Source: an uncultured virus (IMG/VR IMGVR_UViG_3300009158_000042)
Taxonomy: Duplodnaviria > Heunggongvirae > Uroviricota > Caudoviricetes
Direction: 5' to 3' (one strand)
Length of the DNA stretch: 64,000 bases
IMG/VR virus record: IMGVR_UViG_3300009158_000042
In this document: positions 6,599 to 45,055 of the stretch, in pieces
Layout of the letters: every line of letters starts with the position of its first letter
Position numbering within the stretch: position 1 is the first letter of the stretch
Notes under the pieces: model-generated
Database searches by the model: none
What the model was told of the DNA's origin: nothing
What the model saw: the letters and a program-made list of their open reading frames with translations, nothing else
Position numbers and translations under genes: made by a program

Positions 6599-7090
6599 CT
6601 ATTGTTCCTCTATTAGAGGGACCGCATATCTTGCGATATCCATCTCTGACACTATCCTAGTGTAGGTCCGGCAGAAGGCTTCCCTGTCTGAGTTGGTGTG
6701 CATGCCGATTGCAGCATCCCCTAATTGTTTGACAGTTTCTTTCAGTGCTTCTGATACCCCAATAGAAGGAGCCATACCTGAGTTGACGTCTTTTTGTATG
6801 GTAATCCAAGTACCCCAAGCAGAAAGGGGGTCTTCGAATTGGGTCATTTTTGTGACCCTATTTATTGCGGTGCGGCGTATCTCTCCTGGGCGGGGGAGGA
6901 ACTGCGCTTCTACAGCCAGAGTAAGGAATGCTGCCTTCGCATCCTTGTAATCCAAATCGTGCAACAAGTCGAACCAAGATGCATAAAGCAACTTAGTTGG
7001 TGCGGGTCCTACAGGGAGAGGGACATTAAAGGTCATGTAGGCCTGGTCCACTAGTGAGCACAGCTCTTCTTTGGTCATTCGTTTATCCAT
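6599..7090 (-). CDS. Helicase loader/inhibitor (SPP1 G39P-like) family protein
   Basis: WFDLLHDLDY...FLPRPGEIR pattern; follows an initiator-like gene. Confidence 0.6.
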   Translation of the reverse strand: MDKRMTKEELCSLVDQAYMTFNVPLPVGPAPTKLLYASWFDLLHDLDYKDAKAAFLTLAVEAQFLPRPGEIRRTAINRVTKMTQFEDPLSAWGTWITIQKDVNSGMAPSIGVSEALKETVKQLGDAAIGMHTNSDREAFCRTYTRIVSEMDIARYAVPLIEEQ

Positions 7091-7458
7091 TCGTCTTTAG
7101 CTGAGGTTTCGCTCTGCTTGTCATGCAGCTCGAGGAACTTCTCTACATTGCCGGCGTTTCTGAATATGACTGACACATCGTTATAGGCCTGGCCCCTATT
7201 ATTCTGGCCCATCCACCACGGGTCATTGGCACAGCCGTCTATGGCATCCCTACAGGCTTCTACTCCATATACAGCAATTGCCCACCCGATATCTCTGTGG
7301 CGGTTTACATCGAGAGCAGCGCGGCGTTTGGTCTTGCCCATAGCTACCTTCCAGTACTCAAAGATTTCTTCTATTAGAACATTGGAGACAGTTTTGGCTA
7401 GGTCTCCCTTACTCCTATTGTGAGCGCTGGGACCTCTTACTTTTTTATCATCTACCAT
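7075..7458 (-). CDS. Phage replication-initiator C-terminal-like protein
   Basis: IFEYW...AIDG...WWMGQNNRG...VIFRN..NVEKFLE resembles phage replisome-organizer C-termini. Confidence 0.5.
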   Translation of the reverse strand: MVDDKKVRGPSAHNRSKGDLAKTVSNVLIEEIFEYWKVAMGKTKRRAALDVNRHRDIGWAIAVYGVEACRDAIDGCANDPWWMGQNNRGQAYNDVSVIFRNAGNVEKFLELHDKQSETSAKDEWINE

Positions 7459-7753
7459 TTTATGAATCTATCCCTTAATTTGTGATTACACACAGAGTTC
7501 TCCTTAAGCCTGATGGAGAAGGCTACGGTTTTGACGTTGGCTTCTTTTCCGTGGACGGAAGATGTTTCGCCTAGTGAAGGACGGTCGCTGCGCTCCCTTT
7601 TGGAGGGGGGTGTGGGGGGAACCTTTAGATTTGCTCCAGCGCCCACGCATGCTAATGCCCACCGAGTTGATTGGGTGGTACAAAGATGCTAAGAAGTGAC
7701 ATATGCCTATGTCATGTGAATCACATTCAAGCTCTATTGAACTTGCGGAGGTG

Positions 7754-7782
7754 ATGGTAGCAGCATCATCCACCACCGTCAA
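7754..7782 (-). promoter_or_regulatory. Sigma70-type promoter TTGACG-17-TACCAT upstream of the replication genes
   Basis: Minus strand reads TTGACG gtggtggatgatgctgc TACCAT; overlaps the TCATCCACCACCGTCA repeat. Confidence 0.55.
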
Positions 7783-7900
7783 CCCCTAACGCGAGGAATC
7801 TTTTAAAAGCCGGCGAAATATTTTTTGTTGACGTGTTCGTGTCACGGTTCGGATAAGTCTTGACGCGCGCTCGAGCCGTTATGCTGCTAAATTGGCCGGG

Positions 7901-8012
7901 GCTTCTACGGGAGGGTTTACCCCTTTCGACCTCCTATGGAAGTAGGACCCTGGAGTTGAGTTTTCTGGAACGTTGGTAGGTGGCTTACCGGAAAACTCCT
8001 CCGGGGTTTCCC
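7901..8012 (+). ncRNA. Candidate two-hairpin small RNA
   Basis: Two long imperfect stems (7902-7942, 7945-8011) in an intergenic gap, preceded by extended -10-like TGcTAAATT; loops are complementary to leaders of array genes. Confidence 0.45.
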
Positions 8013-8016
8013 ATCT

Positions 8017-8373
8017 CTACTCGTAGACGTCCCAGTCAGGCCAGAACGGTCTGTTCTTTTTGTCTTTTATTTCCTTGGCGCGGCGGAATGCTGCCTTGCC
8101 CATGGATTCTTTATCGAAGTACGACCAATTGGGGTTGCCCATCATTTGTACATTGAGGGTTGACCTGAGGTCTTTGTCCATATGCTTGTGACCGTACTCA
8201 TGATTCAACATCTCTTGAAGCTCTTCGTCTACCAGAGACGTCTGGGCCTCAACATATTTATTGAATTCTTTTGAGTACTTCTTCTGGGTCCTACGACGTT
8301 CGACAGATTTTGAGTCAAAAAACCAAATAATTAGCGCAGCGATGGCCGCAGCTGTAATAGTGAATTGTTTCAT
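8017..8373 (-). CDS. Hypothetical membrane-anchored protein
   Basis: N-terminal hydrophobic stretch; RBS ggag. Confidence 0.6.
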   Translation of the reverse strand: MKQFTITAAAIAALIIWFFDSKSVERRRTQKKYSKEFNKYVEAQTSLVDEELQEMLNHEYGHKHMDKDLRSTLNVQMMGNPNWSYFDKESMGKAAFRRAKEIKDKKNRPFWPDWDVYE

Positions 8374-8381
8374 TTTTTCTC

Positions 8382-8621
8382 CTAAAATTGAGAATCTTGA
8401 GGGAAGTGTACTTCATCCCCAGTTAGCGGGTCGGTAAACAGAATTAAAACGTCATTTTTTGCAATATCAATCTGGGCCCAACCCAGCATCTTGTCAATAA
8501 TCGCATTTTTTGTAATTTCTTCGCCGGCCGCAGCTAGCTCAGCTCGAGCTTCCGCCGCGGAATAATGCAAATTAAATGAAATTCCAACAATATCTGGGAG
8601 ACCGTCGCGGTACGTGCTCAT
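8382..8621 (-). CDS. Hypothetical protein
   Basis: ORF, coupled to neighbours. Confidence 0.55.
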   Translation of the reverse strand: MSTYRDGLPDIVGISFNLHYSAAEARAELAAAGEEITKNAIIDKMLGWAQIDIAKNDVLILFTDPLTGDEVHFPQDSQF

Positions 8622-8857
8622 CGTTTGAAGAATTCTTCGTTTTTCTTCATGATTTCTGGAGCTGCGCGGCCAGCAATTTCGAAGGTTTCATAATGGACGA
8701 TGTCCCCGCATAGATAACATAGGTAGTAGTCGTCCCAGTCCTTGGGTGTTGGCTCTACTAGTTCTCCATCTTTTGTACATGGGTAGAACCCGTCACTGTC
8801 TGGGCGGTTGCCGCATGTGCATTCCCACCAGTCTTCTGCTAATTGTTTAATAGTCAT
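8618..8857 (-). CDS. Hypothetical Zn-finger-like protein
   Basis: CTCGN...GFYPC...CYLCG. Confidence 0.6.
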   Translation of the reverse strand: MTIKQLAEDWWECTCGNRPDSDGFYPCTKDGELVEPTPKDWDDYYLCYLCGDIVHYETFEIAGRAAPEIMKKNEEFFKR

Positions 8858-9122
8858 AGCGGACCCTTTCTAATTGATGCACGTATAACGCGTGCGCGTT
8901 TAAATTTATCTAAAGTCTACAAGAATTTAGTGAAGTTTCTTTTTCTTTTTTTTCTTAATTTTGTAGCCGGCGCGCTCGAGCTCTTCGATTACGTGCTGCG
9001 GGATTCCTTCCCAGATTGGGATTCCCTTTTGAGTTAAGGCACGAGCAATCGCTGCGCGCTTTGGTCCTAGTTGACTAATGTCTTGCATCATCCACCACCG
9101 TCATTCGTTAACGTGAGAAAAC

Positions 9123-14499: not shown

Positions 14500-14788
14500 C
14501 TCTATTCTCCTTGTTGTTGGTGAGTGGTGAACACACCATACCAGCGTAGGTACAGACCTACAAACCTGACTTATCTATTCAGTAGAGACTTATCTATTCA
14601 GTATCAGAAGCGCACCACTTATCTATTCACTCTCCACTTGTGGGCAAGCGAGCGAGCGAGTGCGCCAGCGCAAACTTTTTTATCTCTACCCCCATGCTCG
14701 CCACACGCCCTTCTGCGTTGGAGCCCCGATGTTGCCGAGCAGTGCCGGGGCTCCTATGGGAAAGGGGACTTATCTATTACAGATAGTT

Positions 14789-15271
14789 TTATTTTTCTCG
14801 TTTGGGAACCATAAGAACTTCCCATAGTCCATTTTTGATTTTGCGAAATAATGGAGATTCTTTGAGGTAGGTCAAAGTTGTCTGGTAAGAGAATCCTGAT
14901 TGTTCTGTGAGTTGGTCAGATGTAAATTGCTCTGCCTGATGTTCGCTTGACCACTGCTCAAATGCTGACCACTTATCTTTGCGCTTCTCTGTGCGTTCTA
15001 CTTCTACCTGTGCGTCAGATAGTCCGATGAATGTTGATAGAAGGTACTTTGATACTTCTGCCTGCACCGAGTATGTACTTAGGTACGATTGTGGTACACG
15101 CTGTCCACCTTCTCGTTGCCAAATCTGCAATACATAAAGTCCTCTGTTTATTTCAGAAACATAAGAAACTTCCGAGAACGGAACTGCTGTTGCGTTTTTG
15201 TATTTTTTGAGAAGCACTGCCCAATGTTCTTTGTGTACTTCTTTGATTAGGTCATCTGTAATAGTTTGCAT
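14789..15271 (-). CDS. Hypothetical protein with C-terminal winged-helix-like segment
   Basis: FTSDQLTEQSGFSYQTTLTYLK...FRKIKNGLWEV. Confidence 0.55.
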   Translation of the reverse strand: MQTITDDLIKEVHKEHWAVLLKKYKNATAVPFSEVSYVSEINRGLYVLQIWQREGGQRVPQSYLSTYSVQAEVSKYLLSTFIGLSDAQVEVERTEKRKDKWSAFEQWSSEHQAEQFTSDQLTEQSGFSYQTTLTYLKESPLFRKIKNGLWEVLMVPKREK

Positions 15272-15351
15272 TTTTTCCTTTTTTTTGCAGTTTCTACCGT
15301 TTAGTTTTTTTCTAAAAAATCGTTTTTTTGATAGATAAGTAAGTTGGGCTG

Positions 15352-15561
15352 TTAGTCAATAACAACCCAACTGTCCTCTCCCTTGATTAGTCCGAGACTA
15401 GACCCACTATCCCACTGCACAAACATTGTTCCTAGTGAATCAAAGTCGGTAATGACCCCTTCATCTCCTTTGGATAGTTTGGTGTGAATGTCAGATGTGT
15501 AAATCAGCCTGATTCTCCTGCCAATAAGTGCTTCTAGTCCTGCTGACAACTTATCTATCAT
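15352..15561 (-). CDS. DUF4314-like small protein
   Basis: GRRIRL...GDEG.I...D..G...VQWDSGSSLGLI.GED pattern. Confidence 0.7.
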   Translation of the reverse strand: MIDKLSAGLEALIGRRIRLIYTSDIHTKLSKGDEGVITDFDSLGTMFVQWDSGSSLGLIKGEDSWVVID

Positions 15562-15712
15562 GCTGGCTCTTTCTCTTGTAACGCGATGATTCGCATGTCT
15601 AATAGAAAATCTGTCATTTCTAATGACGAAACAATGTCTCTGCCTGAACAGTGGGAGATTGCTTTGTCAATCAACAAGACGATTGGTGACTTATCTATTA
15701 CAGATTCTTCAC

Positions 15713-15952
15713 TCATTCTGCGTACCCGTAAATAACCATGTCAAGTTCGTTGCCTTCTTCATCGGTGTACTTCTTCTTTCCCTCTCCTGCACAGTCGTCA
15801 AAGTATTCATCGGCTTCCAACATAATCATTTCCATGATGTCATCAAAGTCGGGCTTCTCATCGTTGTCCTCTCTGAATCGCTTTGCCGTTTCTGCCACAT
15901 CAAATGTGACAGTATTGGTGCGAGTTACTGTGATTGTTTTTGGCTCAGACAC
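15713..15952 (-). CDS. Hypothetical acidic protein
   Basis: GTG start supplied by the AATAGATAAGTG motif. Confidence 0.55.
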   Translation of the reverse strand: MSEPKTITVTRTNTVTFDVAETAKRFREDNDEKPDFDDIMEMIMLEADEYFDDCAGEGKKKYTDEEGNELDMVIYGYAE

Positions 15953-15956
15953 TTAT

Positions 15957-16625
15957 CTATTCCTCATCTTTCTTTTTCTTAGCGTTACCAAGTAGGTCGT
16001 GGTAACGGTGAGCAACTACGGCGAGTTTCATGTAGGCAGTGGTAGCACCCATAGCCTCAACCATGCGTCCGTACTCCTGACCTTCTTTTACTTCGCTTAC
16101 ATCTGCCATGTAATCTTCTTCCGAATACACAGGAACTCCAAAGTCATCGTAGCGATACATTTGAGTAGCACTACCAATCAACGAACCATCCCAGTCCATG
16201 CCAGTAACAACGATTGCTTCACGGACTTCTGAAAAAGGATTCTCTGAAAAGTCTTTCTGCATTTCGCCACGCTCAAAGTCAATTTCTTCTGATGTGTCTG
16301 CACTACGGCAGAAACCCTCTACACAGAGAAAGAGGAAAGAGAACTCACGGATAGGCATAGCCTTGACTACATCTTCGTACGCCTCTAATACATCTTCACG
16401 GTGAATGAGTGGAATCATTGCAATCTTGTATGGAGAAGATAATTCGTTTTCTTCCTGATACTCAACTGCATCTTCGTCATCGCTCTTGTAAGCAACGAGC
16501 ATGAGTGGGGGAGTGTCTGTCATCCCCTCGTCTTTGCACATTTGCTCTTTGGCGTACTTAGTACGGTCAAGAACATCCAGCATTATTTTTGACATTTCTT
16601 CTGAAATGGTTTCGTTGATAGCCAT
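15957..16625 (-). CDS. Hypothetical protein
   Basis: RBS aaggag and repeated promoter upstream of ATG 16625. Confidence 0.7.
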   Translation of the reverse strand: MAINETISEEMSKIMLDVLDRTKYAKEQMCKDEGMTDTPPLMLVAYKSDDEDAVEYQEENELSSPYKIAMIPLIHREDVLEAYEDVVKAMPIREFSFLFLCVEGFCRSADTSEEIDFERGEMQKDFSENPFSEVREAIVVTGMDWDGSLIGSATQMYRYDDFGVPVYSEEDYMADVSEVKEGQEYGRMVEAMGATTAYMKLAVVAHRYHDLLGNAKKKKDEE

Positions 16626-16685
16626 TGGCTTTCTCCTTGTTGGTAGGTGTGCAGTCATCGTACCAGTACAGGTACAGAACTACAA

Positions 16686-16892
16686 CTATCCAAGCAACCC
16701 CTGAATGGGGAGACTTAGTGCGTCACTTAGCGAGACAAGAGTGTCCACGCTCGGCGAATAATGTTGGTTCTCAATACGGTTCACCGTTTTTCGTTCCAGC
16801 CCTGCTCGCTTTGCTAGTTCCTCTTGTGACCAGCCTCTTTCTTTTCTTTCAGTTTTTAGCCGTGTGGCAATTACTTCTGTTGCGTTTCCCAT
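16686..16892 (-). CDS. XRE/Cro-family helix-turn-helix regulator
   Basis: RKERGWSQEELAKRAGLERKTVNRIENQHYSPSVDTL. Confidence 0.9.
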   Translation of the reverse strand: MGNATEVIATRLKTERKERGWSQEELAKRAGLERKTVNRIENQHYSPSVDTLVSLSDALSLPIQGLLG

Positions 16893-16926
16893 GTTGTTTC
16901 CTCTCTTGGGGACTTATCTATTTAGT

Positions 16927-17583
16927 TCAGAATGACGGAATGAAACTCTGAAACACCTTTCTCCTTTTATTTCCCCTTCTCCATGCCACATACTCCCTGA
17001 TAGTGGCATCCAAATCTATGTCATGCTGGTCAGTGATGAGATTGCGCCATTCACTTTGTGCTTCGTAGAACTCGTCATACAACTCGTCAAGCCCTGATTC
17101 TGACGCTTTTTCGTACATCTGTATCAGTTCAGGTGGTTGCGTCATGTCACACATGTCCTCTGCAATCTTTTCGCCGTCACAGTAAAGTTCCCAACCAGCG
17201 TAGAAATCTGCTTCTTCTGTGCAACTGTACCCAAATACCAATTTAGGGAACTGCTTGCTGATGTTCTCAATCAACTTGTCACATGGACTCCATGCGCTCG
17301 TGTAGCGCAGATGTAGTGGGTACGAATCTTTATCGTCAATCTCTATGTCACAAGCACCCCACTTGCTTCCCCACACGCCAAGTGCGCCACCAAAGAAAGA
17401 ATCAAGTTTGTCCACCCATTCACTCTCGTCAGGGATAGGTACTAGATGGTTCATGTCATAGTGAGCGTTTATCTTGCGCCCTAGTTCATCATAATCTTCG
17501 GGCATTGAGATTGCTTTGAGAAACTTACGAGTTTCTGTTTTGTTCCCTGCAACAACAAGGTTTGAGAAGCACCAGTTTGGCAT
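16927..17583 (-). CDS. YubB/DUF1281-like protein
   Basis: MPNWC start, WGSKWGA, YTSAWSP motifs. Confidence 0.7.
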   Translation of the reverse strand: MPNWCFSNLVVAGNKTETRKFLKAISMPEDYDELGRKINAHYDMNHLVPIPDESEWVDKLDSFFGGALGVWGSKWGACDIEIDDKDSYPLHLRYTSAWSPCDKLIENISKQFPKLVFGYSCTEEADFYAGWELYCDGEKIAEDMCDMTQPPELIQMYEKASESGLDELYDEFYEAQSEWRNLITDQHDIDLDATIREYVAWRRGNKRRKVFQSFIPSF

Positions 17584-17841
17584 GGTAGTCCTTTCGGGTT
17601 AGTGGTGGTATGCAATGAGCGTACCAGCACAGGTTCAGAACTACTCGGGGGGACTTATCTATTACTCATCCACCACCGTCATTGACTAACGAGCAAAAGT
17701 TTTCTATCTCATCCCCCAAGATTTTTGACTTTTCTATCTCTACCCCCCATGCGCCGATTTTTTCTCTTTTTCGCCGTGTTCCGAAGGAGCCCCGACCAGT
17801 TTGGTTCGCCCCGGGGCTCTTTTGGGAAAAGGACTTATCTA

Positions 17842-18165
17842 TTACATAGGGAGAGTTACGAGTTGTGCCGAGTGGATGTACCAGCCGTAAGCGTGACGGT
17901 GTGTCATGTAGTGCAGTAGTTCCTTGACATCGGTAAGGTGCGTGAACACATCTTCCAACGGAACGCCGTGGCTATCAAAGAATCCACGCTCGGGCTTGGG
18001 TGAGAACGAGATGTACATGTTCTCGTATCCCTCATAAGAGCCATAAGACCTCTGTGGCTTTATCTGGCACTGCGCTCCAATAAACTTTTTTTTTGTCATC
18101 ATCAGAAAGAGAGTCTTTATCAAAGACCAAATGTGGGCGAATGACTTATCTATTACCATTCTCAT
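17842..18165 (-). CDS. Hypothetical protein
   Basis: ATG overlaps upstream TGA. Confidence 0.5.
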   Translation of the reverse strand: MRMVIDKSFAHIWSLIKTLFLMMTKKKFIGAQCQIKPQRSYGSYEGYENMYISFSPKPERGFFDSHGVPLEDVFTHLTDVKELLHYMTHRHAYGWYIHSAQLVTLPM

Positions 18166-18407
18166 GCCCTTCGCCAAACGCTGAACTGTTCGGTCAGGTC
18201 GGTACCAATCAGGGCAATAGTCAATCGTGCAATGGATTCCAGCAGTTCTTTTTCGGTAATGCCCCATTCCTCGTTAGCCCACGGGAACATCATTCCGTTC
18301 TCGTAGTCACACCAAATGTTCGCCATTGCGCCAGCACGACTAACGCCAATGCTGTAATAGTTTTCCCATAGGATTTCATCAACTGCGTATTTGCTAGTTT
18401 TCGTCAT
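18162..18407 (-). CDS. Hypothetical protein
   Basis: ORF in coupled chain. Confidence 0.55.
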   Translation of the reverse strand: MTKTSKYAVDEILWENYYSIGVSRAGAMANIWCDYENGMMFPWANEEWGITEKELLESIARLTIALIGTDLTEQFSVWRRA

Positions 18408-18609
18408 TTTGTACTTCCTCTGCTACGTGCGATGAAATCGTGTCTGCAATTTTTGAGAAATCTACACCAAACGATGCTTTCCATCTGTCCAGTACAACTT
18501 CCATCGCAAGGTTCGCAACTTCTTCCGTAGAAAGATTTGCCGAGTCAATGCTCAGCACTTCCCTTACTGTTGCTGGTCCAACTATTGCTGTTACTTCGTA
18601 AAGAGCCAC
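18394..18609 (-). CDS. Hypothetical protein
   Basis: GTG start within AATAGATAAGTG motif. Confidence 0.55.
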   Translation of the reverse strand: MALYEVTAIVGPATVREVLSIDSANLSTEEVANLAMEVVLDRWKASFGVDFSKIADTISSHVAEEVQNDEN

Positions 18610-18613
18610 TTAT

Positions 18614-18841
18614 CTATTCCTCATCTTCATAGTCGCTGTCCACGGAGAACCAGCGCATCACTGTTAGAAGCAGGTTATCGTAATCGCCCGATGTTGCTTC
18701 GGCACGAAACGCCTCTATCTCATCGGCAGTCAATCCTGCTCGCCGAGCAATTCTCTGCACACGCCCAAGTATGGAGAAGGCGTTGCCGTCCTCTCCTACT
18801 AGTGGAATGTTGATGTGTGGGTATTTTGTATCTGTACTCAT
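18614..18841 (-). CDS. Conserved phage hypothetical protein
   Basis: LVGEDGNAFSILGRV...ATSGDYDNLL pattern recurrent in phage small proteins. Confidence 0.65.
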   Translation of the reverse strand: MSTDTKYPHINIPLVGEDGNAFSILGRVQRIARRAGLTADEIEAFRAEATSGDYDNLLLTVMRWFSVDSDYEDEE

Positions 18842-19053
18842 TCTGAGTGTTCTCCTGTTTCCATGTCAATAGCGTAAGCATCTTCCAACTTGGCTCCTGC
18901 CAAGCCTGCAACATTCCTGCCGAATGTTCTAGCCATTTTGCCTGCTTCTTTTAGGCTCTTGGCTTCTACGGTGGTATCTTCTGTCCACTCGGCAAGACCA
19001 ATCTTTTCCTGCTTTGTCAGCAGAGCGATTATTTCGTATTCTTTTGTTGCCAT
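18838..19053 (-). CDS. Hypothetical protein
   Basis: First gene after promoter copy 19085. Confidence 0.6.
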   Translation of the reverse strand: MATKEYEIIALLTKQEKIGLAEWTEDTTVEAKSLKEAGKMARTFGRNVAGLAGAKLEDAYAIDMETGEHSE

Positions 19054-19128
19054 TACTTTCCCCTTTGTGGTTGGCTTCGCCTTCACTGTACCACAAGAGG
19101 TACGGAACTACAAGGGGGACTTATCTAT

Positions 19129-19440
19129 TCATGAACAGAGGTAGTCAAGCCACAGTACGAGAATGTCCAACGGCTCTGACATTGACGGAAATGCGTCCGA
19201 GGCTAGGAACTGGAAGTCCGAGAACATCAACTCGTTCGTCTCCGTGTAACGGTTGCACCCACCTTCTCCCATGTTGTACACGGTCAGGAACTCCACACCA
19301 TTGCGTGAGACAACTGCCTTCCAGTAAATCCCTCGGTCATGTTCGCTCTCCTCTTGTAGAGCAAACCTGTACCCCATCTTGTCAGGGCGCAGTTCGTCAG
19401 GAACGCTGTCAAAGATTTCTTCTATGTTTAGGTCAGTCAT
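19129..19440 (-). CDS. Hypothetical protein
   Basis: ORF; NMGEGG motif. Confidence 0.55.
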   Translation of the reverse strand: MTDLNIEEIFDSVPDELRPDKMGYRFALQEESEHDRGIYWKAVVSRNGVEFLTVYNMGEGGCNRYTETNELMFSDFQFLASDAFPSMSEPLDILVLWLDYLCS

Positions 19441-19720
19441 GTTTTTTAGTGTAGATAGATTTATCCGAAAAGTCAATCAGCAGACTCATCCACCACCGTC
19501 AATTGCTAACGGCGACTTTTTTATCGCGACCCCCAGCTCGACCGACGAATTCGCAAAAAATCAACTTTTTTATCCCGACCCCCCAGATTTTTGCCCTGTT
19601 CCGAAAGAGCCCCGGACGGACCAGCGCAGGCGGGGCTCCAATGGAGAAGATGGGACTTATCTATTACATAGAGCAATCTCCCCTGCCGAGCGCAAGGGAG
19701 ACTACTGAATAGATAAGTGG

Positions 19721-20038
19721 TCACTCGGTCAGGAGATAATGCCCACCACGCCTCTCGTATTGAGCAGTAGCCTCAGTAACGGTTTCACGGTAATCACCAT
19801 TCTCCATGTGCCAACCTTCGGGACGGTCTACGGCGTTCCACACTGCGAACGGGTGAAGCGTGTTGTGTGGCAAGAGACAGAGAACAACCCACACGGCGTA
19901 AGCGTCAATGTCAGACGGGCGAGAGAGCCAGCAAGCGAGAATGGTGACAGGATTACTGCCACTGCTAGGAGTGAATGTGTCACCCACTTTCAGCAATCGC
20001 ATTGGGTATGTCTCGGTAGGGGACTTATCTATTGACAT
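19721..20038 (-). CDS. Hypothetical protein
   Basis: TAATG-coupled to upstream gene; HPFAVW...GDY. Confidence 0.55.
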   Translation of the reverse strand: MSIDKSPTETYPMRLLKVGDTFTPSSGSNPVTILACWLSRPSDIDAYAVWVVLCLLPHNTLHPFAVWNAVDRPEGWHMENGDYRETVTEATAQYERRGGHYLLTE

Positions 20039-20481
20039 TACTCGCCACCCAACCAAGCGTTCATCTGCTCATCTGTCATCTCGGTAATGGTTGGTCTGAA
20101 ATCCATTTCAGCGATTTCTTTGGTCAGCATTTCTTTGATGACTTCCATCTCTGCGATTTCTTTCGCAAAGTCAAAAAAGCGTCCTGATGTGTAGGTTGCT
20201 GGAATGTCGTGGTTCTCTCCGTCATACTCGCCACGCTCGTTGAGAGAGCCGATTACAACGCAGTCACCCACAAGTGGACGCTGGAACAACATAGACGCTA
20301 CGGCGTTCACTGGTAGCCCGATAAGCAATCCTTCGTCATGGACATAGCCCACGATTTCTTCGCCTCGTACACAGTCAAACCAGCCACCCACGATTTCGTG
20401 AATGAGTGTGTGACCGTTCTCGCTTGGTATGTCCTGCGTGAATACTTCACCTGTGGACTTGATGATTATTGCTGTTGCCAT
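20038..20481 (-). CDS. DUF3846-like protein
   Basis: IVGGWFD...VHDEGLLIGLPVN..AS...LVGDCVVIG. Confidence 0.7.
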   Translation of the reverse strand: MATAIIIKSTGEVFTQDIPSENGHTLIHEIVGGWFDCVRGEEIVGYVHDEGLLIGLPVNAVASMLFQRPLVGDCVVIGSLNERGEYDGENHDIPATYTSGRFFDFAKEIAEMEVIKEMLTKEIAEMDFRPTITEMTDEQMNAWLGGE

Positions 20482-20596
20482 GATGGCTCTCCTTGTTTGG
20501 TAGGTGTTGATAGCGTACCACTGTGGGTACAGAACTACTGGTGGACTTATCTATTGAGTAGTGGGGACTTCTCCCCACTACTCGCAGATGAATTGG

Positions 20597-21001
20597 TTAG
20601 ACGGCTTCTGCTTTGCTCGCAGGCTTGACTGAACCTTTGGCAGGCTTCACGAGAACTCGCACACTGTTCGTGATTTCCACGCAGGACTTGATGACCTTCT
20701 TGGTGATTTCGCCCTTGCCTACTGCGCTGTCCCACGCCTTAGTGTCAATCGCTGGCTTGGTGACCTTGCGAAACAATGCTGGCGAAAGTTGCTCACGCAA
20801 TTTCTCAACAGAGAACGAACGGCGTTCTGCTGGCGAGACTTTGACATTCAGTTCTGCGAACTCGGCTTCGCTCACGCCTGCGATTGCGAATGTTGCGATA
20901 AGCAACTCTCTCGCTTCGTCATGCGCCTGCTCGGCTTGCTCTTTGGCTGTTAGAGCAGTGAGAAAAGCCTCTACTGCTTGGTTGATTGTTTCTGCTTCCA
21001 T
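20597..21001 (-). CDS. Hypothetical coiled-coil phage protein
   Basis: RBS gaaagggg, promoter copy 21045 upstream. Confidence 0.65.
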   Translation of the reverse strand: MEAETINQAVEAFLTALTAKEQAEQAHDEARELLIATFAIAGVSEAEFAELNVKVSPAERRSFSVEKLREQLSPALFRKVTKPAIDTKAWDSAVGKGEITKKVIKSCVEITNSVRVLVKPAKGSVKPASKAEAV

Positions 21002-21436
21002 GATGTACCCCTTTCGTGGGTGTGTATCGCTTGTGGTACCCACAAGCGTACACGGTCAGGTACAGAACTACAACCTTTTGACTTATCTATTTACAACTCC
21101 CCTCGCACCCTCACAGTTAGTCTCTTATTTATCACGACCCCCCATGCCTCGCCTCTCCTTTTCGCCCCTTCTCGGTTGGAGCCCCGTTCTAGTCGGGCAT
21201 CATCGGGGCTCCCTTCGGCAAACCCCCCGATAGGCAAGTTCGCATGGGGAGTAGAGATAGAAAAGTGAACGATTTGGATAAGCGCAGACTGGCTCGGATT
21301 TATGCTCGGCTCACAGAAGTAGAACGGCTAGTGAGTGCCGTGCGTCTGCTCAACAGTCAGACACGGGCAAGGTTAGAGCGAAGCAAGTTCGTACTTGTGG
21401 AGAACGACTTATCTATTCAGGTAGAAAACCAAAAAA

Positions 21437-21469
21437 GGGAGACTCATCTGTAATAGATAAGTCTCCCTC
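21437..21469 (-). terminator. Intrinsic terminator whose stem contains the AATAGATAAGTC motif
   Basis: Minus strand: agggagacttatct-attac-agatgagtctccct followed by a T-run. Confidence 0.6.
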
Positions 21470-21534
21470 TTTGTTGGTGTGGGCGTTTCCCTTCTGAAAG
21501 GAAGGGGGGACAGAGGTACTAAGCCCTCGCTCAA

Positions 21535-21954
21535 CTACTTTATGTAGCGAGCGACCCCTGCGTAGGTGTTGGTGCTTACTGTTTCCTCGTCTGTCATACG
21601 AAGGATACTGATAGCGTTCTCCAACTCCTCAATCTCTGATTTGATAGCCCAATGAACGAAGTCTTGTTCAGGCTCTTTTGGTGCTTTCACCGAAGCAGGA
21701 AACTCAATCGTGAGTTCGTACTTGTTGCCTTCCTCGTTACGGTAGTTGTTGTACTTGCTGACATTTGTGACCTTGCCCTTGCCTGAACGAAACAACTCCG
21801 AAAGACTGTCTTGGAAGTCTTTGACTTCTTTTTCGTATTCTTTTTTTGCTTTTTCGTAATCGGACATTTGCTTATTGCGAAAGTCAAGAGCCTTCTGTAA
21901 TGCGTCAATCACTTTCTTAGTGCTGACCTTTACATTTATGGATTTCTGTTTCAT
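21535..21954 (-). CDS. Hypothetical protein
   Basis: RBS aggag, promoter copy 21998. Confidence 0.65.
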   Translation of the reverse strand: MKQKSINVKVSTKKVIDALQKALDFRNKQMSDYEKAKKEYEKEVKDFQDSLSELFRSGKGKVTNVSKYNNYRNEEGNKYELTIEFPASVKAPKEPEQDFVHWAIKSEIEELENAISILRMTDEETVSTNTYAGVARYIK

Positions 21955-22323
21955 TTGGTTTCTCCTGCCAGCCTTGTAGGTGGGTGCTGACTCGCATACC
22001 GTACCACTCAAGGTACAGACCTACACGCCCACTTATCTATTACATTTTTATCTCGCCCCCCCGTCCCTCGCCATGTGTTCGCAAGAAAGCCCCGACCTAG
22101 TTCGTTATCAACGGGGCTCATTCCGAAACGAGAGAACAAGAGCGCACTTGGGGGTTGAGATAGAAAAGTTGAGTTCGGGGTTGCGTAACTTATCTATTTG
22201 GAATAATCAAAAAACCGTAACGCTCGCACAACCGTAATAGATAAGTCAGGTCACCTTGGTAATAGATAAGTCAAAGCCCCTGTCAGCATGGGGTGGCTGA
22301 CAGGGGCTAAGGCTTGCTAAGTG

Positions 22324-22788
22324 TTAGCGCATGAAGTTGCGAATAGCGTCATTGAGACTGCCAGTTGCGCCACCTTCATCAGTAATCGTGTCATCAGGCT
22401 CGTCTTGGAAACGGAGAACGCTTACAACATCTTCACGAGTAGCAACCACAACGAGACGAACACGACGCTTTTCAGGGTGCTGACTTGGTGGAGTGTCAAG
22501 ACCAACTTCTGCGTCAAAGTCCTTGGGAAGTGGCGCAGCCCAACCCGTTGTAACTACTGCCGTGAACTCGTATGACTTAGCAACCTTACGGTCTGCCTTG
22601 TCCAGTAGGTCATAAACATCATCATGTGACGAGAGGTGAGTGAGTTTCGCTTCGTTGTTGGTGATAGTGACACCGTAGAGGCGAGATGAGGACAGTTGGA
22701 ACTGGTCATCAGGATTAGTCGGGTGACTGAGTAGGTGGTGGAGTTTGGCTTCTGCCAACTCTGCCGTAGCGAGTAATGAAAGTGTCAT
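22324..22788 (-). CDS. Hypothetical protein
   Basis: GWAAP...PSQHPEKRRVRL motif; promoter copy 22823. Confidence 0.65.
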   Translation of the reverse strand: MTLSLLATAELAEAKLHHLLSHPTNPDDQFQLSSSRLYGVTITNNEAKLTHLSSHDDVYDLLDKADRKVAKSYEFTAVVTTGWAAPLPKDFDAEVGLDTPPSQHPEKRRVRLVVVATREDVVSVLRFQDEPDDTITDEGGATGSLNDAIRNFMR

Positions 22789-23227
22789 AGCGTTTCCCTT
22801 CGTGGTTTGTTGTGACAAGGACAGCGTACACGATTAGGTACAGAACTACAATGGCACTTATCTATTCAGAAAAAAGACTTCCACCACCGTCATTCACTAA
22901 CAGGACAACCCACAACCCTTCTCGCTATTTTTTGACTTTTTTATCACGACCCCCAAGCCCCTCGTTCGCCCTCGCCTTGGCGTGTTCGGAAAGAGCCCCG
23001 GGCATTTCGCCAACGGCGGGGCTCCAATGGGAAAGGAAGCCGAGCCGAGTGAATTGGTTGGGTTGGGTGACTTATCTATTGCTGATACCGAGACAGCCGA
23101 GAGATAGAGCGAGCGTGTCACTCTCTGCCCTCGTGCCTATCCTCAATAGACAAGTGCCACGCCACAACGCCTGCCATGAGAGCAACACCGAGCAACGGTG
23201 AACAGAGGGCGAGTATCACGAGCGTTC

Positions 23228-23527
23228 TCATCTGTCATGTGGCATGGTCAGCACTTGCCAAGTGTCTAGGCTAGTTCCGTAGAAATCCACGAGCCGTGAG
23301 ATGACAGCCCCCGTGTCTCCGTGACAATTTGTGCGAGCGATACTCCACACCGTGTCACCCTTCTCAACATTCACCGTAGGCGTGTCACAAGTGAAGTGGG
23401 TACGGTCAGCCGTAATCCACCCCACAACAGCACCAGCGAGAGGGAGAGAGAACAGCAGAACAATAAGCGAGGTAGTGCCGAAAGCGAAACGCCTACGCTT
23501 GTACTTATCTATTACCATTTCACGCAC
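23228..23527 (-). CDS. Membrane-anchored LysM-domain protein
   Basis: TM helix then VEKGDTVWSIA LysM signature. Confidence 0.65.
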   Translation of the reverse strand: MREMVIDKYKRRRFAFGTTSLIVLLFSLPLAGAVVGWITADRTHFTCDTPTVNVEKGDTVWSIARTNCHGDTGAVISRLVDFYGTSLDTWQVLTMPHDR

Positions 23528-23951
23528 TCACTTTCATAGCGTCTGCCCACGAATAATTTGCAATTTCTGCCAATGTTTGATTTTCGTCTAATCCCTCTAC
23601 GGCATAAACGGTGACACCATCTTTACGCATTACATACACATAGTCAGCCCATGAGAACGATTTGTCCTCTGGCGCATACCACGCATACTCGTCATCAGGC
23701 GTATCGGTGTGAAAAATACCGTAGCCCTCGCAGTAGTTATCGCTTGCAGTTTCCTCACGAGGTTCGGTGGTGATTACTGACCAAGAGTTGTGGTCGTGCA
23801 AAAGCGTCTGAACCACTTTCGCTAATCCGTCACGCTCTCGCAGTTCAGCCAAGAGAGGCACGATACGAGATGGGTAGTTGTCCCAATGAGCGTAACGCCC
23901 ATGCCACCTGCCCCCTGCTAGTTCGCTTGCGATTATTGCTCGTGTACTCAT
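23520..23951 (-). CDS. Conserved phage hypothetical protein
   Basis: MSTRAII...YAHWDNYP...ADYVYV pattern. Confidence 0.65.
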   Translation of the reverse strand: MSTRAIIASELAGGRWHGRYAHWDNYPSRIVPLLAELRERDGLAKVVQTLLHDHNSWSVITTEPREETASDNYCEGYGIFHTDTPDDEYAWYAPEDKSFSWADYVYVMRKDGVTVYAVEGLDENQTLAEIANYSWADAMKVSA

Positions 23952-23952
23952 G

Positions 23953-24258
23953 TTATTTACCCACCGTGATTACAGGGCGAGTGCCGAACATTGAGAAGTG
24001 CGCTTCCAATGGGTACGCCTCTAACAAACTCTTGTAGTGAGATGGATAGTTCGCATACGCCAAGAAATAATCGCTTGCGTCAATGATGGTAGTGATGGTG
24101 ACATTCTCAATGTCTGAAAGGTCAATAATCAGCAATACCGAATTATCTCGGCTTGCTCGCACATACGCTTGTGCGCCGTTGTAGTGGTACACGAGGTGTT
24201 TGCTCGCCTGCTGGTCAATAAACCTCGCAGTTGTCATGTGGTCATTGTTCATAGTCAT
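23953..24258 (-). CDS. Hypothetical protein
   Basis: First gene after promoter copy 24287. Confidence 0.6.
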   Translation of the reverse strand: MTMNNDHMTTARFIDQQASKHLVYHYNGAQAYVRASRDNSVLLIIDLSDIENVTITTIIDASDYFLAYANYPSHYKSLLEAYPLEAHFSMFGTRPVITVGK

Positions 24259-24667
24259 TTCGTTTCCTTCCGTTTGACTTGCTTGCAGAATACCAGTAGA
24301 GGTACAAACCTACAACCCTGCCCACTTATCTATTACCAACACGCCCGACCCACTCACAATCTGACTTTTTTATCACGACCCCCCATGCTCACAAAAGCGT
24401 CAAAAAAGACGCTTTCTGTTGGAGCCCCGACCTCGCTCGTTTCCATCGGGGCTCCCCTCGTGCGTGACGCTTTGCTCGCATGACGGGGGTAGAGATAGAA
24501 ATGTGGAGTTCTATCGGGTTGCGAACTTTATCGCACGGCTTGTATCGGTGGAGTGAGTTCGCTCACGCACGGGCGCACGGCTCGTATCTGTAATAGATAA
24601 GTCCACGCACACAGCAAAGCCCTGACCTATCCGTAATAGATAAGTCAGGGCAAAGGCTGTTAGAGGG

Positions 24668-24976
24668 CTACTCGGACTCGCACCTGCCACACAGGTAGTC
24701 AGCACCCCAAGCGTCACCCACATAATTACCGTGCTTACAGTAGAGGCTCGCCTGATACTCACGCTCACGGTTCTCACGGGCTTCACATTCCTCGTAGTAC
24801 GCCTCGTAATGCTTCTCACAGCGTGGGAAGGTAACGAACGCACCCGAACGGTAGTAGCGCACGGGGATAGTCACCTCGTAGTTCACGGAGCCTTCGCACG
24901 GGGAGTCAGGATTATCGTAATCAAGACAATCCTCATGCGTCAGTTCGGGCGTATCGGACTTATCTATGTCAGTCAT
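24668..24976 (-). CDS. Hypothetical Cys-rich protein
   Basis: CEGSV...RCEKH...CKHG...CGRCE. Confidence 0.55.
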   Translation of the reverse strand: MTDIDKSDTPELTHEDCLDYDNPDSPCEGSVNYEVTIPVRYYRSGAFVTFPRCEKHYEAYYEECEARENREREYQASLYCKHGNYVGDAWGADYLCGRCESE

Positions 24977-24977
24977 G

Positions 24978-25466
24978 TCAGACCTTTCCAGCACAGGTGC
25001 TACCCATGCCCCTAGCAACGCTCTTAGGGTCAGTTAGGTCTGCCCCACAGATAACGCACATTGAGTACAGCAAGCCAAGTTCAGCGCACTCGGCAATAGT
25101 CATACGCATACTCGCAGTAAGGCGATAGAACGCCCCACGCTCAAAGACAATGCGCTCGGACTTCGTTGTGCCTTCGGGAACGAAACGCATGGCGTACATT
25201 CCTGATTTATCCTTGTTGTACTTCACACGATAAACAACGCCGTCAGCATTGCGATACATACCGATTTCGGTAACAGGGTCAAGGTTCGCAGGCGCACTCG
25301 CCTTAGCCTTCGCCATGCTCGCCTCTACGGCTTCTATCTGCTTGATAGTGAGAGAGCCGAAACGGTCTAGCGAACTAAGTACGCTCGCATAGAACGAATT
25401 ACTCTTAGCGTTCTCACGCAAGAAATTAGCGATTATTTCTAATCGGTCTAGTGGTGGTGTGGTCAT
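24978..25466 (-). CDS. DUF6011-like Zn-ribbon protein
   Basis: C-terminal CVICGADLTDPKSVARGMGSTCA. Confidence 0.7.
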   Translation of the reverse strand: MTTPPLDRLEIIANFLRENAKSNSFYASVLSSLDRFGSLTIKQIEAVEASMAKAKASAPANLDPVTEIGMYRNADGVVYRVKYNKDKSGMYAMRFVPEGTTKSERIVFERGAFYRLTASMRMTIAECAELGLLYSMCVICGADLTDPKSVARGMGSTCAGKV

Positions 25467-25807
25467 GTCTTACCCCTTCTAAGTAGTTTGACTACTCGTA
25501 CAATACCAGCAAAGGTACGGAACTACTAGGGGACTTATCTATTCAGTATCGGCTCGCAGTATCCACTCGGATACGCTCGCAGTTGGCTCGCATACTTCGC
25601 TCGGACTTATCTATTCAGTAATCACCCACGCCTCGCACCTACCAGCACCAGCACTCTTTTTTATCTCTACCCCCGTTGCGCCCCCACCCGTCACTTCTCG
25701 GTGGGGGCCCCGTTCGCGCTGAGTCATGCCGGGGCTCCCATCGGGCGCAAGGTCAAGCCTTGACCTACCCGTGAGAGTAAGTCAAGGCGAGACTATCTAG
25801 CACTTAT

Positions 25808-26242
25808 CTATTCAGGAAAGGCGCTAGCCCTTGCGAGTAATCCCGTAAGTATGCCGTCAGCGTAGTAGTCAGGCGCTGTGCCGTCTAGGTACTTGCCCAA
25901 TGAGGCTAGGACTGTGCGCTCAAACTCGGCGAAGGACTTATCGCCGTAGCGCCCCACCGCTTGCGTGGCAAACTTGGTAGCAGGGTAGGTAGCGAAGTCA
26001 AAGACGGTAAATGATGTCACGCTCATGGTGGCGTGTGGTTGCCAGTGAACTAGACGGATAGTTGCCTCATACTGCTTGCGCTTAGCGTCATGGCTGAACT
26101 CAAGTTCTATTTGCTCACCCCACAAGTCATTGCTGTGGACATGCGGAATGTCTACCTTTGAGGACTGCCAACGGTAGGTGACCTCACGGTCACGCTCACG
26201 GCGCTTGGCTTGCGCTAGTAGGTTGGTGGTTGCTGTGGTCAT
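25808..26242 (-). CDS. Hypothetical protein
   Basis: First leftward gene from the divergence point. Confidence 0.65.
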   Translation of the reverse strand: MTTATTNLLAQAKRRERDREVTYRWQSSKVDIPHVHSNDLWGEQIELEFSHDAKRKQYEATIRLVHWQPHATMSVTSFTVFDFATYPATKFATQAVGRYGDKSFAEFERTVLASLGKYLDGTAPDYYADGILTGLLARASAFPE

Positions 26243-26613
26243 GGTTACCCCTTCATGGTTGTTTGACTACTCGCATAGTACCATCGTAGGTACGGAACTA
26301 CTGTGGGACTTATCTATTACCGATACGCTCACGCCTCGCCACTCGGCAACCCCCGATAGTTGGGCTTATCTATCTCAACCCCCGTCACAGCCTCGGAGTC
26401 TCTCGGACTCTTACGGTTGGAGCCCCGTTCGCGCTCGGTTCCCTCGGGGCTCCCATCGGGAAGGGCGCTTCCCTACTCTTGGGGGTCGTGATAAAAAAGT
26501 TTCATCTAATCGGTCAGGGTCTTTCTTTCATAGATAAGTCTCGGTGGAGGTTTGTACCTCACCATGTACTCTGTGTCCAGTTGGGGGATGGTCTCCCAGC
26601 AGGAAGGGATGCC

Positions 26614-27135
26614 ATGTTCGGTGTTGTTCAGCAGTTGGAGGACGAAGAGGTGCAGGCTCGCACTGTGCTTTTCGTTTACGAAGTCAAAGAGGAAGGCGAT
26701 GCACTCGCTGTGGTTGGAACATTCCACCCCAACTTCTTTGACCAAGACATTGTCAATCTCATCAAGGAAGAGCGCCAGTGCTCTTACAACCAAGCAGAGG
26801 ACGACGAGCAGGGTTCAGCGATGGAAGCCTGTGGTTGCATTTGGTGCCTCACCGAAGGCACGGGCTATCTCAATTGGGGAAGCAACGGATGGGATGACAT
26901 TCCGAGAGGGTTCGCATTTGTGCAGTTTCCAAAAAGCGCTGCAATCGCCGAAGGCTCGCTCATTCTTGTTGAAGGCAAGTGGCTCTCCGAGGACATCCAC
27001 GGCGTTTCGGAAACCAAGTCCGTTATCAACTACGAGACCACAATGGTGGAGACCTCGCATGGCACCTACCCCGAAGCCGAGTGCCTTGCAGTTGAGCATT
27101 GGGAGTTGCTACCAGCACTCCCAGCCAATCGGTAA
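26614..27135 (+). CDS. Hypothetical protein
   Basis: First rightward gene; RBS aggaaggg, promoter copy 26544. Confidence 0.6.
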   Translation: MFGVVQQLEDEEVQARTVLFVYEVKEEGDALAVVGTFHPNFFDQDIVNLIKEERQCSYNQAEDDEQGSAMEACGCIWCLTEGTGYLNWGSNGWDDIPRGFAFVQFPKSAAIAEGSLILVEGKWLSEDIHGVSETKSVINYETTMVETSHGTYPEAECLAVEHWELLPALPANR

Positions 27136-27393
27136 TAGATAAGTCATCAACCACTCTGAGTGAAAGAAGAACTCGCTCAGAGTGATGACCAAGGAAGCCC
27201 CGGCTCGCTCGTTCCCAACGGGGCTCCCTTGCGCTTCGCTTGCTTCGGTGGTGGGGGTCGTGATAAAAAAGTCTGCTCCTCGTTGCGAGGGAGAAGCTCG
27301 GGTTATCTGTAATAGATAAGTACCCCTAGCAGTTCTGTACCTATTGGGTTACTATTGAGTGACCACATAACACTTTCCTGAAGGGGGAACTAA

Positions 27394-27807
27394 ATGTCAA
27401 AAATAGATTATGACGGAATACAACTTTCGTACGAGGCTCAAGTTATTGAGTCAGATAAAAAGTTGCTTGATGCTTTACTTGATGCCGTGAAAGATGAAGA
27501 ACTTGCACCTTTCACATTCCACATGGAGTGGGTCATCTGTGATTACTGCCGTGGCAACGGTGGACACTCTCGCCGTTTCGGTGCAATGAGTTCAGAAGAG
27601 TTTGCAGAGTGGAGCGATGAGTCTCGTGAAGCGTACTTGCGTGGTGCTTACGATGACCGTTGTGAAGCGTGTGATGGAAGTGGAAAGGTCTATGAGATGA
27701 ACGAAGGCGCATTGCCTGAAGAAGTTATTGAGTTCATTGACAACTACCGTCAGTACGCATTTGATAGCGCATCTGAAAGTCGTGCTGAACGAATGGCAGG
27801 TTGCTGA
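27394..27807 (+). CDS. Hypothetical protein with DnaJ-type CxxCxGxG motifs
   Basis: CDYCRGNG...YDDRCEACDGSG. Confidence 0.7.
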   Translation: MSKIDYDGIQLSYEAQVIESDKKLLDALLDAVKDEELAPFTFHMEWVICDYCRGNGGHSRRFGAMSSEEFAEWSDESREAYLRGAYDDRCEACDGSGKVYEMNEGALPEEVIEFIDNYRQYAFDSASESRAERMAGC

Positions 27808-28046
27808 TGTTTACTTACCGTGTAACTGTTCAGGTCACGCTTGATGTTGAGGCAGAAGATGACGATGGAGCAATGGCAGTAGCAATGCAGAATGTCAGTG
27901 CTCGCATAGGCGATGACCGTACAACACCTCTCCACGAAAGAACTGATGCAATGTGGGTGACAGGCATTGCTGAAAGAGATTACGAATACTTTTGTTACAA
28001 GCAACCATTCCCACTATGGGTAATAGATAAGTCAGAGGACTACTAA
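27807..28046 (+). CDS. Hypothetical protein
   Basis: TGATG-coupled ORF. Confidence 0.55.
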   Translation: MFTYRVTVQVTLDVEAEDDDGAMAVAMQNVSARIGDDRTTPLHERTDAMWVTGIAERDYEYFCYKQPFPLWVIDKSEDY

Positions 28047-28048
28047 TC

Positions 28049-28339: not shown

Positions 28340-28440
28340 AAAGGATTGATTATGGTTTTTTTATTTGTTATTGCAGTAACGCTTGCAGTTCTAATAGCAA
28401 TAGTTCGTGACGATAGATGGTGGTGAACACTTATCTATTA

Positions 28441-29447: not shown

Positions 29448-29474
29448 TTCGGACAAAGGAAGGAACCACACCCG

Positions 29475-31657: not shown

Positions 31658-31731
31658 TGGTGATAGATAAGTCCCCTTGTAGTTCTGTACCTTATGTAGT
31701 ACGCTCTGTTCAGACCACGGAAGGGGTTTCC

Positions 31732-45028: not shown

Positions 45029-45055
45029 TTGTTTATTCCTTTTTATTACTATTAG

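Follow-up and report, generated by a model that had tools for sequence, protein, structure and literature searches.

Small RNAs of the RsaE/RoxS type carry C-rich unpaired motifs that pair with the G-rich ribosome-binding sites of many mRNAs. Lambda OOP and CopA of plasmid R1 are short counter-transcripts beside replication genes, and phage T4 has the RegB endoribonuclease, a protein that cuts GGAG. To our knowledge, regulatory RNAs have rarely been described in large phages that appear non-temperate, and hardly ever in uncultivated ones. RsaE is reported to take part in interactions involving G-rich motifs (PMC6158497), and a review describes the c4 antisense RNA of phages P1 and P7, the loops of which pair with short sites around the ribosome-binding site and block translation (PMC12197685). 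A 64,000-nt stretch of the uncultured virus record IMGVR_UViG_3300009158_000042 (hereafter the window; bases 30875-94874 of the 158,714-bp record, which has direct terminal repeats) was analysed computationally, and a candidate small RNA locus at 7885-8018 on its + strand is described here.

Judged from its sequence and from that of its relatives, 7885-8018 (+) would be the gene of a small non-coding RNA of ~110-120 nt with its own extended -10 promoter, read opposite to the surrounding genes; the promoter-like motif and the leader that precede a replication-like gene are oriented divergently from it. The RNA would begin at the foot of a first hairpin, which displays the unpaired CCCCUUUC, and end after a second hairpin, the tip of which carries the fixed GGUAGGUG. 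The promoter-headed genes of an array are marked by a variant ribosome-binding site, (G)AAAGGGG / AAGGGGUA, with which loop 1 is predicted to pair; this pairing would block 30S binding and lower the translation of that gene class, and genes with an ordinary GGAGG-type site would pair less well. We put the probability of this whole statement, mechanism included, at roughly 0.4.

The extended -10 promoter element TGcTAAATT was found at 7885-7893 (+), a position conserved in relatives: all 22 representative sequences have a TAnnnT box with its last base at model position 1, and 20 of them also have TG two bases ahead of it. A -35-like hexamer, TTGACG (7860-7865, +), lies 22 nt ahead of the -10, an unusually long spacer; -35-like sequences of the form TT(G/T)(A/C)(C/G/A)(A/G) were detected at 21-23 nt spacing in 14/22 representative sequences, and the spacing in the array promoters of the same genome is 17 nt. 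From the promoter position, the RNA would start near 7898-7901. Hairpin 1 (7901-7943, +) is formed by the stems 7901-7907/7937-7943 and 7909-7914/7930-7935, and its loop (7915-7929, unpaired probability 0.88-1.0) holds the anti-Shine-Dalgarno-like motif CCCCTTTC (7920-7927, +), the complement of GAAAGGGG. Hairpin 2 (7945-8009, +) has a long G+C-rich, terminator-like stem with a 2-nt bulge at 7956-7957, a junction motif GGAGTTGAG (7952-7960, +; family consensus GGGUUGAG, kept in 17/19 distinct sequences) and an apical region, 7969-7987, that is partly closed by a weak G-U helix and contains the loop-2 core GGTAGGTG (7975-7982, +; 17/19 distinct sequences). It is followed by the U/C-rich tail TTTCCCATCTCT (8007-8018, +), the candidate 3' end. 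The tails of relatives are also pyrimidine-rich (for example GUUUUUCUUUU and CACUUUUUA), with a canonical terminator U-run in some (L071, L072) and a poor one in L052 and the window. Because hairpin 2 is long and G+C-rich and has a U/C-rich tail, it probably doubles as a terminator. A second terminator-like site (8037-8063, +; 6-bp stem and T-run) lies in the 3' end of the minus-strand gene 8017-8373; it overlaps the codons for a conserved KKNRPFWPD and was not seen in the relatives G001 or G002, and for these reasons it is probably incidental.

Folding of 7893-8016 (+) gave the two hairpins at -55.5 kcal/mol (z -2.37), a value equalled by 5/200 shuffles. Both hairpins, the -10 element and the other strings quoted in an earlier, sequence-only reading of this DNA were thus recovered at their positions, and the comparative sequence evidence that follows agrees with its two-hairpin RNA on the + strand, which is a separate structured element, conserved and with a promoter ahead of it.

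Covariance model R1, made from the window alone, gave full-length matches in two of five related records (E-values 2.9e-9 and 1.7e-6), the relatives having been reached through an SNF2 helicase (57-78% identity). Both matches lay in complete or near-complete genomes and were syntenic with orthologues of the neighbour genes (53-59% protein identity). Model R2, made from three sequences, was run over the window and 77 loci from an alignment of the replication-like protein (three of 80 loci, window duplicates, were excluded). It gave 40 matches, in the window and 39/77 loci, with E <= 3.9e-5 and 19 distinct sequences; G003 and G005, negative with R1, were positive with R2. Exactly one copy was present in each of the seven records that are at least 91% complete (G000, G001, G002, G003, G009, G011 and G012). 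A signature pattern of the three fixed motifs retrieved 33 viral contigs, 31 of which were the same contigs as in the protein-based search. The same pattern had no match in 185,579 bacterial and archaeal species genomes, and therefore neither a prophage copy nor a host clue was obtained. Two candidate relatives were rejected: L010 (38% over 37 residues) was a spurious match in a high-G+C bacterial contig, and L011, picked up via the loop-1 pattern, was an unrelated repeat. The clade consists of roughly 145-170-kb freshwater phages, and the DNA runs containing the region came from freshwater and lake metagenomes.

Across the 19 distinct sequences, 91.0% of cells pair and 29/38 base pairs have changed on both sides (compensatory changes). 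None of 500 shuffles reached any of these measures, and when the partner was slid by 1-3 columns the values fell to 8-14 pairs and 44-60% paired. Compensatory changes affect all 13 pairs of hairpin 1 (helices 2 and 3) and 16/22 pairs of hairpin 2 (helix 4); double changes are absent from the outer closing helix of 3 bp, which is probably located before the RNA start. The same two hairpins were obtained by independent MAFFT/RNAalifold analysis of three sequences, and single-sequence folds of G001 and G002 agree. The loop-1 sequence CCCCUUUC is present in 18/19 distinct sequences, with a mean unpaired probability of at least 0.75 in 21/22, and the loop-2 sequence GGUAGGUG in 17/19, the lineages L074 and L076 having a short plain loop instead. 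Stems kept while loops change had been named beforehand as an outcome that would speak against a loop-based RNA; here the stems were found to covary and the loops to be conserved. We regard it as nearly certain that this is a real structured RNA element.

Close strains were compared by aligning contigs of four DNA runs to 7400-8400, and the figures given here are among the differences listed. In the X8 contig (94% identical), the 122-nt block 7895-8016 has one substitution (7957 T>A) and a 1-nt deletion (7919), both in unpaired positions (7957 in the 2-nt bulge of hairpin 2, 7919 in loop 1). The flanks have 20 substitutions in the 315 nt before the block and seven in the 204 coding nt after it, so that at most one substitution compares with ~6 expected (Poisson probability ~0.01). 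The X14 contig is 88% identical. The 7919 deletion is common to X8, X13 and X14, and the A at this position is also missing in most relatives. A + strand frame at 7860-7979 was considered as coding and rejected, as the deletion in three strains would shift the frame.

A + strand transcript of ~110-120 nt is favoured by the fixed extended -10, by the U/C-rich tail and by the excess of G-U over A-C pairs on this strand (40:10 over distinct rows; ten against none among the 42 pairs of the window's own fold), and the RNA is very probably made from it. The sequence-only reading had also offered the opposite strand, as a decoy for a leader-binding protein. The locus would then belong to the minus-strand operon as a structured intercistronic or 3' untranslated segment, and its loop would show a start-codon-less GAAAGGGG that serves as a decoy for ribosomes or for such a protein, or the element would stabilise the mRNA. 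Without an intervening terminator the minus strand is transcribed; on that strand the loop reads like an array ribosome-binding site with no start codon behind it, and in G002 the two strands fold about equally. However, the fold z-score of 7893-8016 is -0.79 on the minus strand vs -2.37 on the + strand, neither hairpin is followed by a T-run on the minus strand, where a scan listed no intrinsic terminator in 7783-8016, the promoter element and tail are sensible on the + strand only, and the G-U excess points the same way, which makes a minus-strand role very unlikely. A single-stranded DNA signal, such as a lagging-strand priming site or an origin hairpin, would agree with the position of the locus next to the replication-like gene and with its strand-specific structure. 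Folded as DNA, however, the + strand reaches -20.7 kcal/mol (z -1.26, 24/200 shuffles as good) and loses hairpin 1; the ten G-T pairs would be poorly tolerated and the conserved promoter element would be unexplained, and we consider such a signal hardly credible.

For loop 1, complementarity to the ribosome-binding sites of several array genes had been proposed from the window alone. The string TACCCCTTTCG occurs on the + strand at 7918-7928 and 21006-21016, the second occurrence corresponding to the candidate target CGAAAGGGGTA, the ribosome-binding site of gene 20597-21001 (21006-21016, -), the G001 ortholog of which has TGAAAGGGT. Further candidate targets, all string matches, are the site GAAAGGGGTA of gene 32870-33211 (32856-32865, +) and the AAGGGGTA sites of genes 24978-25466 (25471-25478, -), 25808-26242 (26246-26253, -) and 32276-32782 (32264-32271, +). 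As the earlier reading had listed, AAGGGGTA was found ahead of the last three genes; in all, it precedes five start codons (20597-21001, 24978-25466, 25808-26242, 32276 and 32870), and each of the named targets does follow immediately on a copy of the repeated promoter (families D4, D7 and D8). An 11-mer match to two leaders turned up in 1.75% of 2000 dinucleotide shuffles and in 5% of 15,860 genome windows, with ~1.6-1.8% of shuffles for the loop-to-leader matches in general, and TACCCCTT has nine genome occurrences vs 4.8 expected. The k-mer matches of the window itself are therefore just nominally unusual and could be chance in 64 kb; the evidence beyond chance comes from the relatives.

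Loop 1 is exactly complementary to GAAAGGGG. Among the 8-mers at -24..-3 of predicted starts, GAAAGGGG ranks first in G001 (nine genes), in G002 (five) and in the sum over the three genomes G000, G001 and G002 (17, vs 16 for AGGAGAAA). In G000 the top leader 8-mer is AGGAGAAA, with AAGGGGTA and GAAGGGGT at five each. Leaders complementary to a loop-1 8-mer number 6/190 in G000, 13/180 in G001 and 7/167 in G002, against shuffle means of 1.2-1.3, and these counts are reached by 1.4%, 0.1% and 0.1% of 1000 composition-matched shuffles, respectively. GGGG-type sites cluster in the promoter-headed array. At starts, AAGGGG was counted 13, 14 and 8 times vs 7, 7 and 7 for AAGGAG in the three genomes, and AAGGGG-N4-9-ATG was found 10-16 times per record vs 2-7 for a reversed control in eight records, five of them beyond the first three. 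The complementarity of loop 1 to ribosome-binding sites thus exceeded shuffles in three genomes; the exact 11-nt match put forward earlier is peculiar to the source strain, since the A at 7919 is deleted in X8, X13 and X14.

Loop 1 resembles an anti-Shine-Dalgarno sequence with C where the rRNA has U. Duplex energies were estimated by the nearest-neighbour method against what we take to be the motif of the 16S rRNA 3' tail: with UGAAAGGGG, loop 1 reaches -13.6 kcal/mol vs -10.6 for the 16S tail, and with UGAAAGGAGG -9.8 kcal/mol vs -15.0. We give somewhat less than even odds to base pairing between loop 1 and the GGGG-type ribosome-binding sites of the phage's genes as the RNA's mode of action. 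A doubtful elaboration of this model is a ribosome-binding-site 'address code', in which GAAAGGGG, carried by a block of promoter-headed genes, would pair with 16S rRNA via one G-U wobble and perfectly with a phage RNA that copies the rRNA tail with one U-to-C change. On accumulation, the RNA might out-compete ribosomes on that gene class only, by ~3 kcal/mol, and bring about a timed, class-wide shut-off of translation, and loop 2, with its Shine-Dalgarno-like AGGUG core, may dock the RNA on the 30S subunit or a host factor.

Loop 2 behaved differently from what the sequence-only reading had expected, namely a second set of leader targets. GTTGGTAGGTG occurs at 7972-7982 and 16639-16649 and TTGGTAGGTG at 20497-20506, the proposed target being CACCTACCAAC in the leader of gene 15957-16625 (16639-16649, -). 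In G001 and G002, however, CACCTACCAAC with its 9-10-mers and ACCTACCAA occur only as the RNA's own antisense, and the leaders of the genes orthologous to the two 'targets' have TGAAAGGGG in their place. Complementarity of loop 2 to leaders was at shuffle level in G001 and G002 and marginal in G000 (4.2%), and a duplex-energy scan of the three genomes gave no site common to them, the best matches in G001 being a G001-specific repeat. The loop-2 leader matches in the window are probably chance, and of the multi-target shut-off RNA that had been proposed, the loop-1 motif survives comparative testing and the loop-2 targets fail. Loop 2 was also noted to look like the tRNA D-loop (GUUGGUAG), the 16S segment GGUUGG and the local repeats, but none of these likenesses has support from co-variation.

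The strictness of both loops, which are invariant while the neighbouring proteins are just 41-55% identical, together with the missing conserved RNA partner for loop 2 in three phage genomes, also suits an RNA that acts via protein or ribosome binding or on host RNAs. In such a model, loop 1 would mimic the 16S 3' tail and loop 2 (GGUAGGUG, AGGUG core) would be a second recognition element, so that the RNA titrates or recruits a host or phage factor such as the 30S subunit, an RNA-binding protein or a nuclease. The lineage with CCCCAAUC in loop 1 (G003, which is complete, G005 and G006) fits as well, as it keeps the rest of the RNA and its ribosome-binding sites are unchanged. Yet a candidate partner was not identified, two lineages are without the loop-2 motif, and a pure protein site would not predict the loop-1 complement as top leader 8-mer in the three-genome sum, G001 and G002; we judge this explanation somewhat unlikely.

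Several observations weigh against the proposed pairing of loop 1 with GGGG-type sites and against parts of the evidence on which it stands. The CCCCAAUC lineage keeps AAGGGG sites (10 in G003) and TTGGGG is not raised (5 in G003 vs 8 in G000), so loop and ribosome-binding site do not co-vary there, and pairing falls to -7.7 kcal/mol in this lineage. In G009, G011 and G013 the sites show no counterpart to the loop bases on either side of CCCC (UA, UU or an extra C). C/U-rich loops in general complement purine-rich ribosome-binding sites somewhat, and the shuffles control for composition only; the gene starts came from a simple predictor. The strict conservation of loop 2 is unexplained by pairing of loop 1 and needs another partner. 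The alignments behind the pair counts were fitted to the covariance model, the G002 strands fold nearly alike (-49.4 vs -48.9 kcal/mol), the U-run behind hairpin 2 is poor in some relatives and the 21-22-nt spacing of the -35-like box is odd. No RNA run that contains the region was among the 24 runs listed.

The genes around the RNA locus are all on the minus strand, and a 558-nt gap, in which open reading frame prediction and family searches gave no credible gene, separates 7075-7458 from 8017-8373. The RNA's syntenic partner is the replication-initiator-like gene 7075-7458 (-; 127 aa): all R2 matches outside the window (39/39) are on the strand opposite this gene and 399-580 nt upstream of it, and 31 of the 33 contigs from the protein-independent signature search belong to the same set. 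This arrangement would fit replication control, by a counter-transcript or origin-proximal RNA of the lambda OOP or plasmid copy-number kind. Its target would be either the neighbouring replication-like operon or transcripts that run on from the upstream operon, the 3' untranslated end of which is perfectly complementary to the RNA. The divergent promoter-like motif, the conserved structured leader of the gene and the RNA block, which in G000, G001 and G002 abuts the upstream gene at its stop codon, are in keeping with this role. Neither the leader nor the coding part of the replication-like gene, however, is overlapped by the RNA, which would overlap only read-through from 8017-8373, and inspection by eye gave no conserved complementarity to that leader. 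Loop conservation is not required in a pure cis-antisense pair, yet it is present. Of the 127-aa protein, only the C-terminal part matches an initiator profile (phrog_16167 'replication initiation protein', E 1.1e-13), with nothing significant in Pfam or NCBIfam, and the synteny is partly a product of how the loci were fetched. Replication control is accordingly unlikely, and class-wide pairing of loop 1 with ribosome-binding sites is retained as the preferred reading.

The non-coding leader of the replication-like gene (7459-7760, -; ~300 nt) lies between this gene and the promoter-like repeat and is itself conserved, with covarying hairpins and an invariant C-rich block TAAAGGTTCCCCCCAnACCCCCCTCCAA in the three-genome alignment of G000, G001 and G002. 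No Rfam family matched it at the gathering threshold, and it may represent another structured RNA or an element related to an origin. Ahead of it, the repeated promoter-like motif CGTTAGnnn(A/T)TGACGGTGGTGGATGA (7766-7789, -; -35 TTGACG) diverges from the RNA promoter. Seven copies of the TGACGGTGGTGGATGA motif were found, all on the minus strand (7766-7789, 9088, 9781, 11363, 17666, 19486 and 22877), and the motif is kept in G001 and G002. The copies start with ATG or TTG, and five of the seven open frames of just 6-11 codons (MTVVDD...); the motif could act as a promoter, encode a leader peptide or bind a protein. These short frames also spoke against taking the repeat at 7766-7789 as a shared N-terminus (MTVVDD) and 7504-7782 as a gene, the 92-aa frame of which is without any family. 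The upstream gene 8017-8373 (-), the stop codon of which adjoins the RNA block, encodes 118 aa with a hydrophobic N-terminal stretch; this protein had no family match at the default E-value cut-off and three homologues at 96, 86 and 59%.

A second motif, (T/G)AATAGATAAGTC, has ~66 copies in the genome, 65 of them within 4844-41396 of the window on both strands, oriented with the local genes and often directly ahead of the repeated promoter. Its counterpart in G001 and G002 is GGTGTAGGTAAGTC, and it could be a phage-specific promoter or regulator site. GATAAGTC at 7852 was considered as a copy of AATAGATAAGTC and rejected: 66/82 GATAAGT sites have an ATA prefix and 7852 is among the other 16, vs 19 by chance. 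In 14500-33400, intergenic cassettes contain the same parts in a fixed order, namely a hairpin GGAGCCCCG-N17-CGGGGCTCC, GGGGGTCGnGATAAAAAAGT, CGTTAG..TGACGGTGGTGGATGA, AATAGATAAGTC and TTGTAG(G/T)TCTGTACC-N-TGGTACnnT, followed downstream by a short A/C-rich leader and a GGGG-type ribosome-binding site. These cassettes resemble the mobile promoter/stem-loop cassettes of T4-type phages. Elsewhere, three giant genes of 4250, 2645 and 3369 aa were noted (48585-61337 on the minus strand, and 79465-87402 and 89244-99353 in window coordinates), the 4250-aa product having ParB-C-terminal-like and DNA-polymerase-exonuclease-like stretches. The window and the genome record differ at six positions within 21105-21396 (offsets 21104-21106, 21114, 21120 and 21395).

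Searches of catalogues returned nothing resembling the RNA. With the whole window, Rfam 15 at the gathering threshold gave only two tRNAs (45056-45216); for the region 7700-8100 three matches had E 0.66-5.4, all at least 22 bits under the cut-off, and the homologous regions of L028 and L087 gave only matches at E 0.33-5.1. ARAGORN reported only the adjacent minus-strand genes for tRNA-Met (CAT) and tRNA-Ile (TAT) at 45055-45216 of the window, and the RNA locus is not a tRNA or tmRNA. Neither 7000-9000 nor 7780-8020 matched any of 50,697 phage records by blastn. When IMG/VR and JGI metagenomes were searched with the flanking proteins, every copy obtained was at least 99% identical, and the 401-nt region was 100% identical. 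In the full-text literature, no description of such an RNA surfaced. The RNA family is, as far as sequence comparison can tell, genuine, new and previously uncatalogued.

Comparative support for this RNA comes from stems that covary, loops that stay invariant, a promoter that is conserved and the single copy in every complete genome of the clade, and the RNA has a concrete candidate target class. At the least, it adds a new RNA family for family libraries and for the annotation of these phages. If the proposed mechanism is true, the phage would sort its own messages for translation by a mimic of the rRNA tail, a result comparable to what T4 reaches with a nuclease. The likeness to RegB lies in a phage silencing a class of its own mRNAs via the ribosome-binding sequence, with the difference that here an RNA would mask the GGGG variant. 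With OOP and CopA the RNA shares its small size, its structure, its location on the opposite strand and the gap upstream of an initiator-type gene, and it abuts the 3' end of the preceding gene; unlike them, its block overlaps neither a coding region nor the replication-gene leader, and its loops are invariant across distant relatives. Like c4, as described in the review cited above (PMC12197685), it would be a phage RNA with two separate complementary elements, but c4 is there processed from the operon of its one target (icd-ant), whereas the present RNA has its own opposite-strand promoter and many candidate targets, which lie tens of kilobases from it, and complementarity is supported for just one of its loops. 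The RsaE/RoxS-type RNAs of Firmicutes are similar in their unpaired C-rich loop motif, in the multiple mRNAs with GGGG-type sites as candidate targets and in the probable terminator hairpin at the 3' end; the present RNA has no sequence or Rfam kinship with them and differs as a phage RNA with a single C-rich loop, the predicted targets of which are the phage's own gene class.

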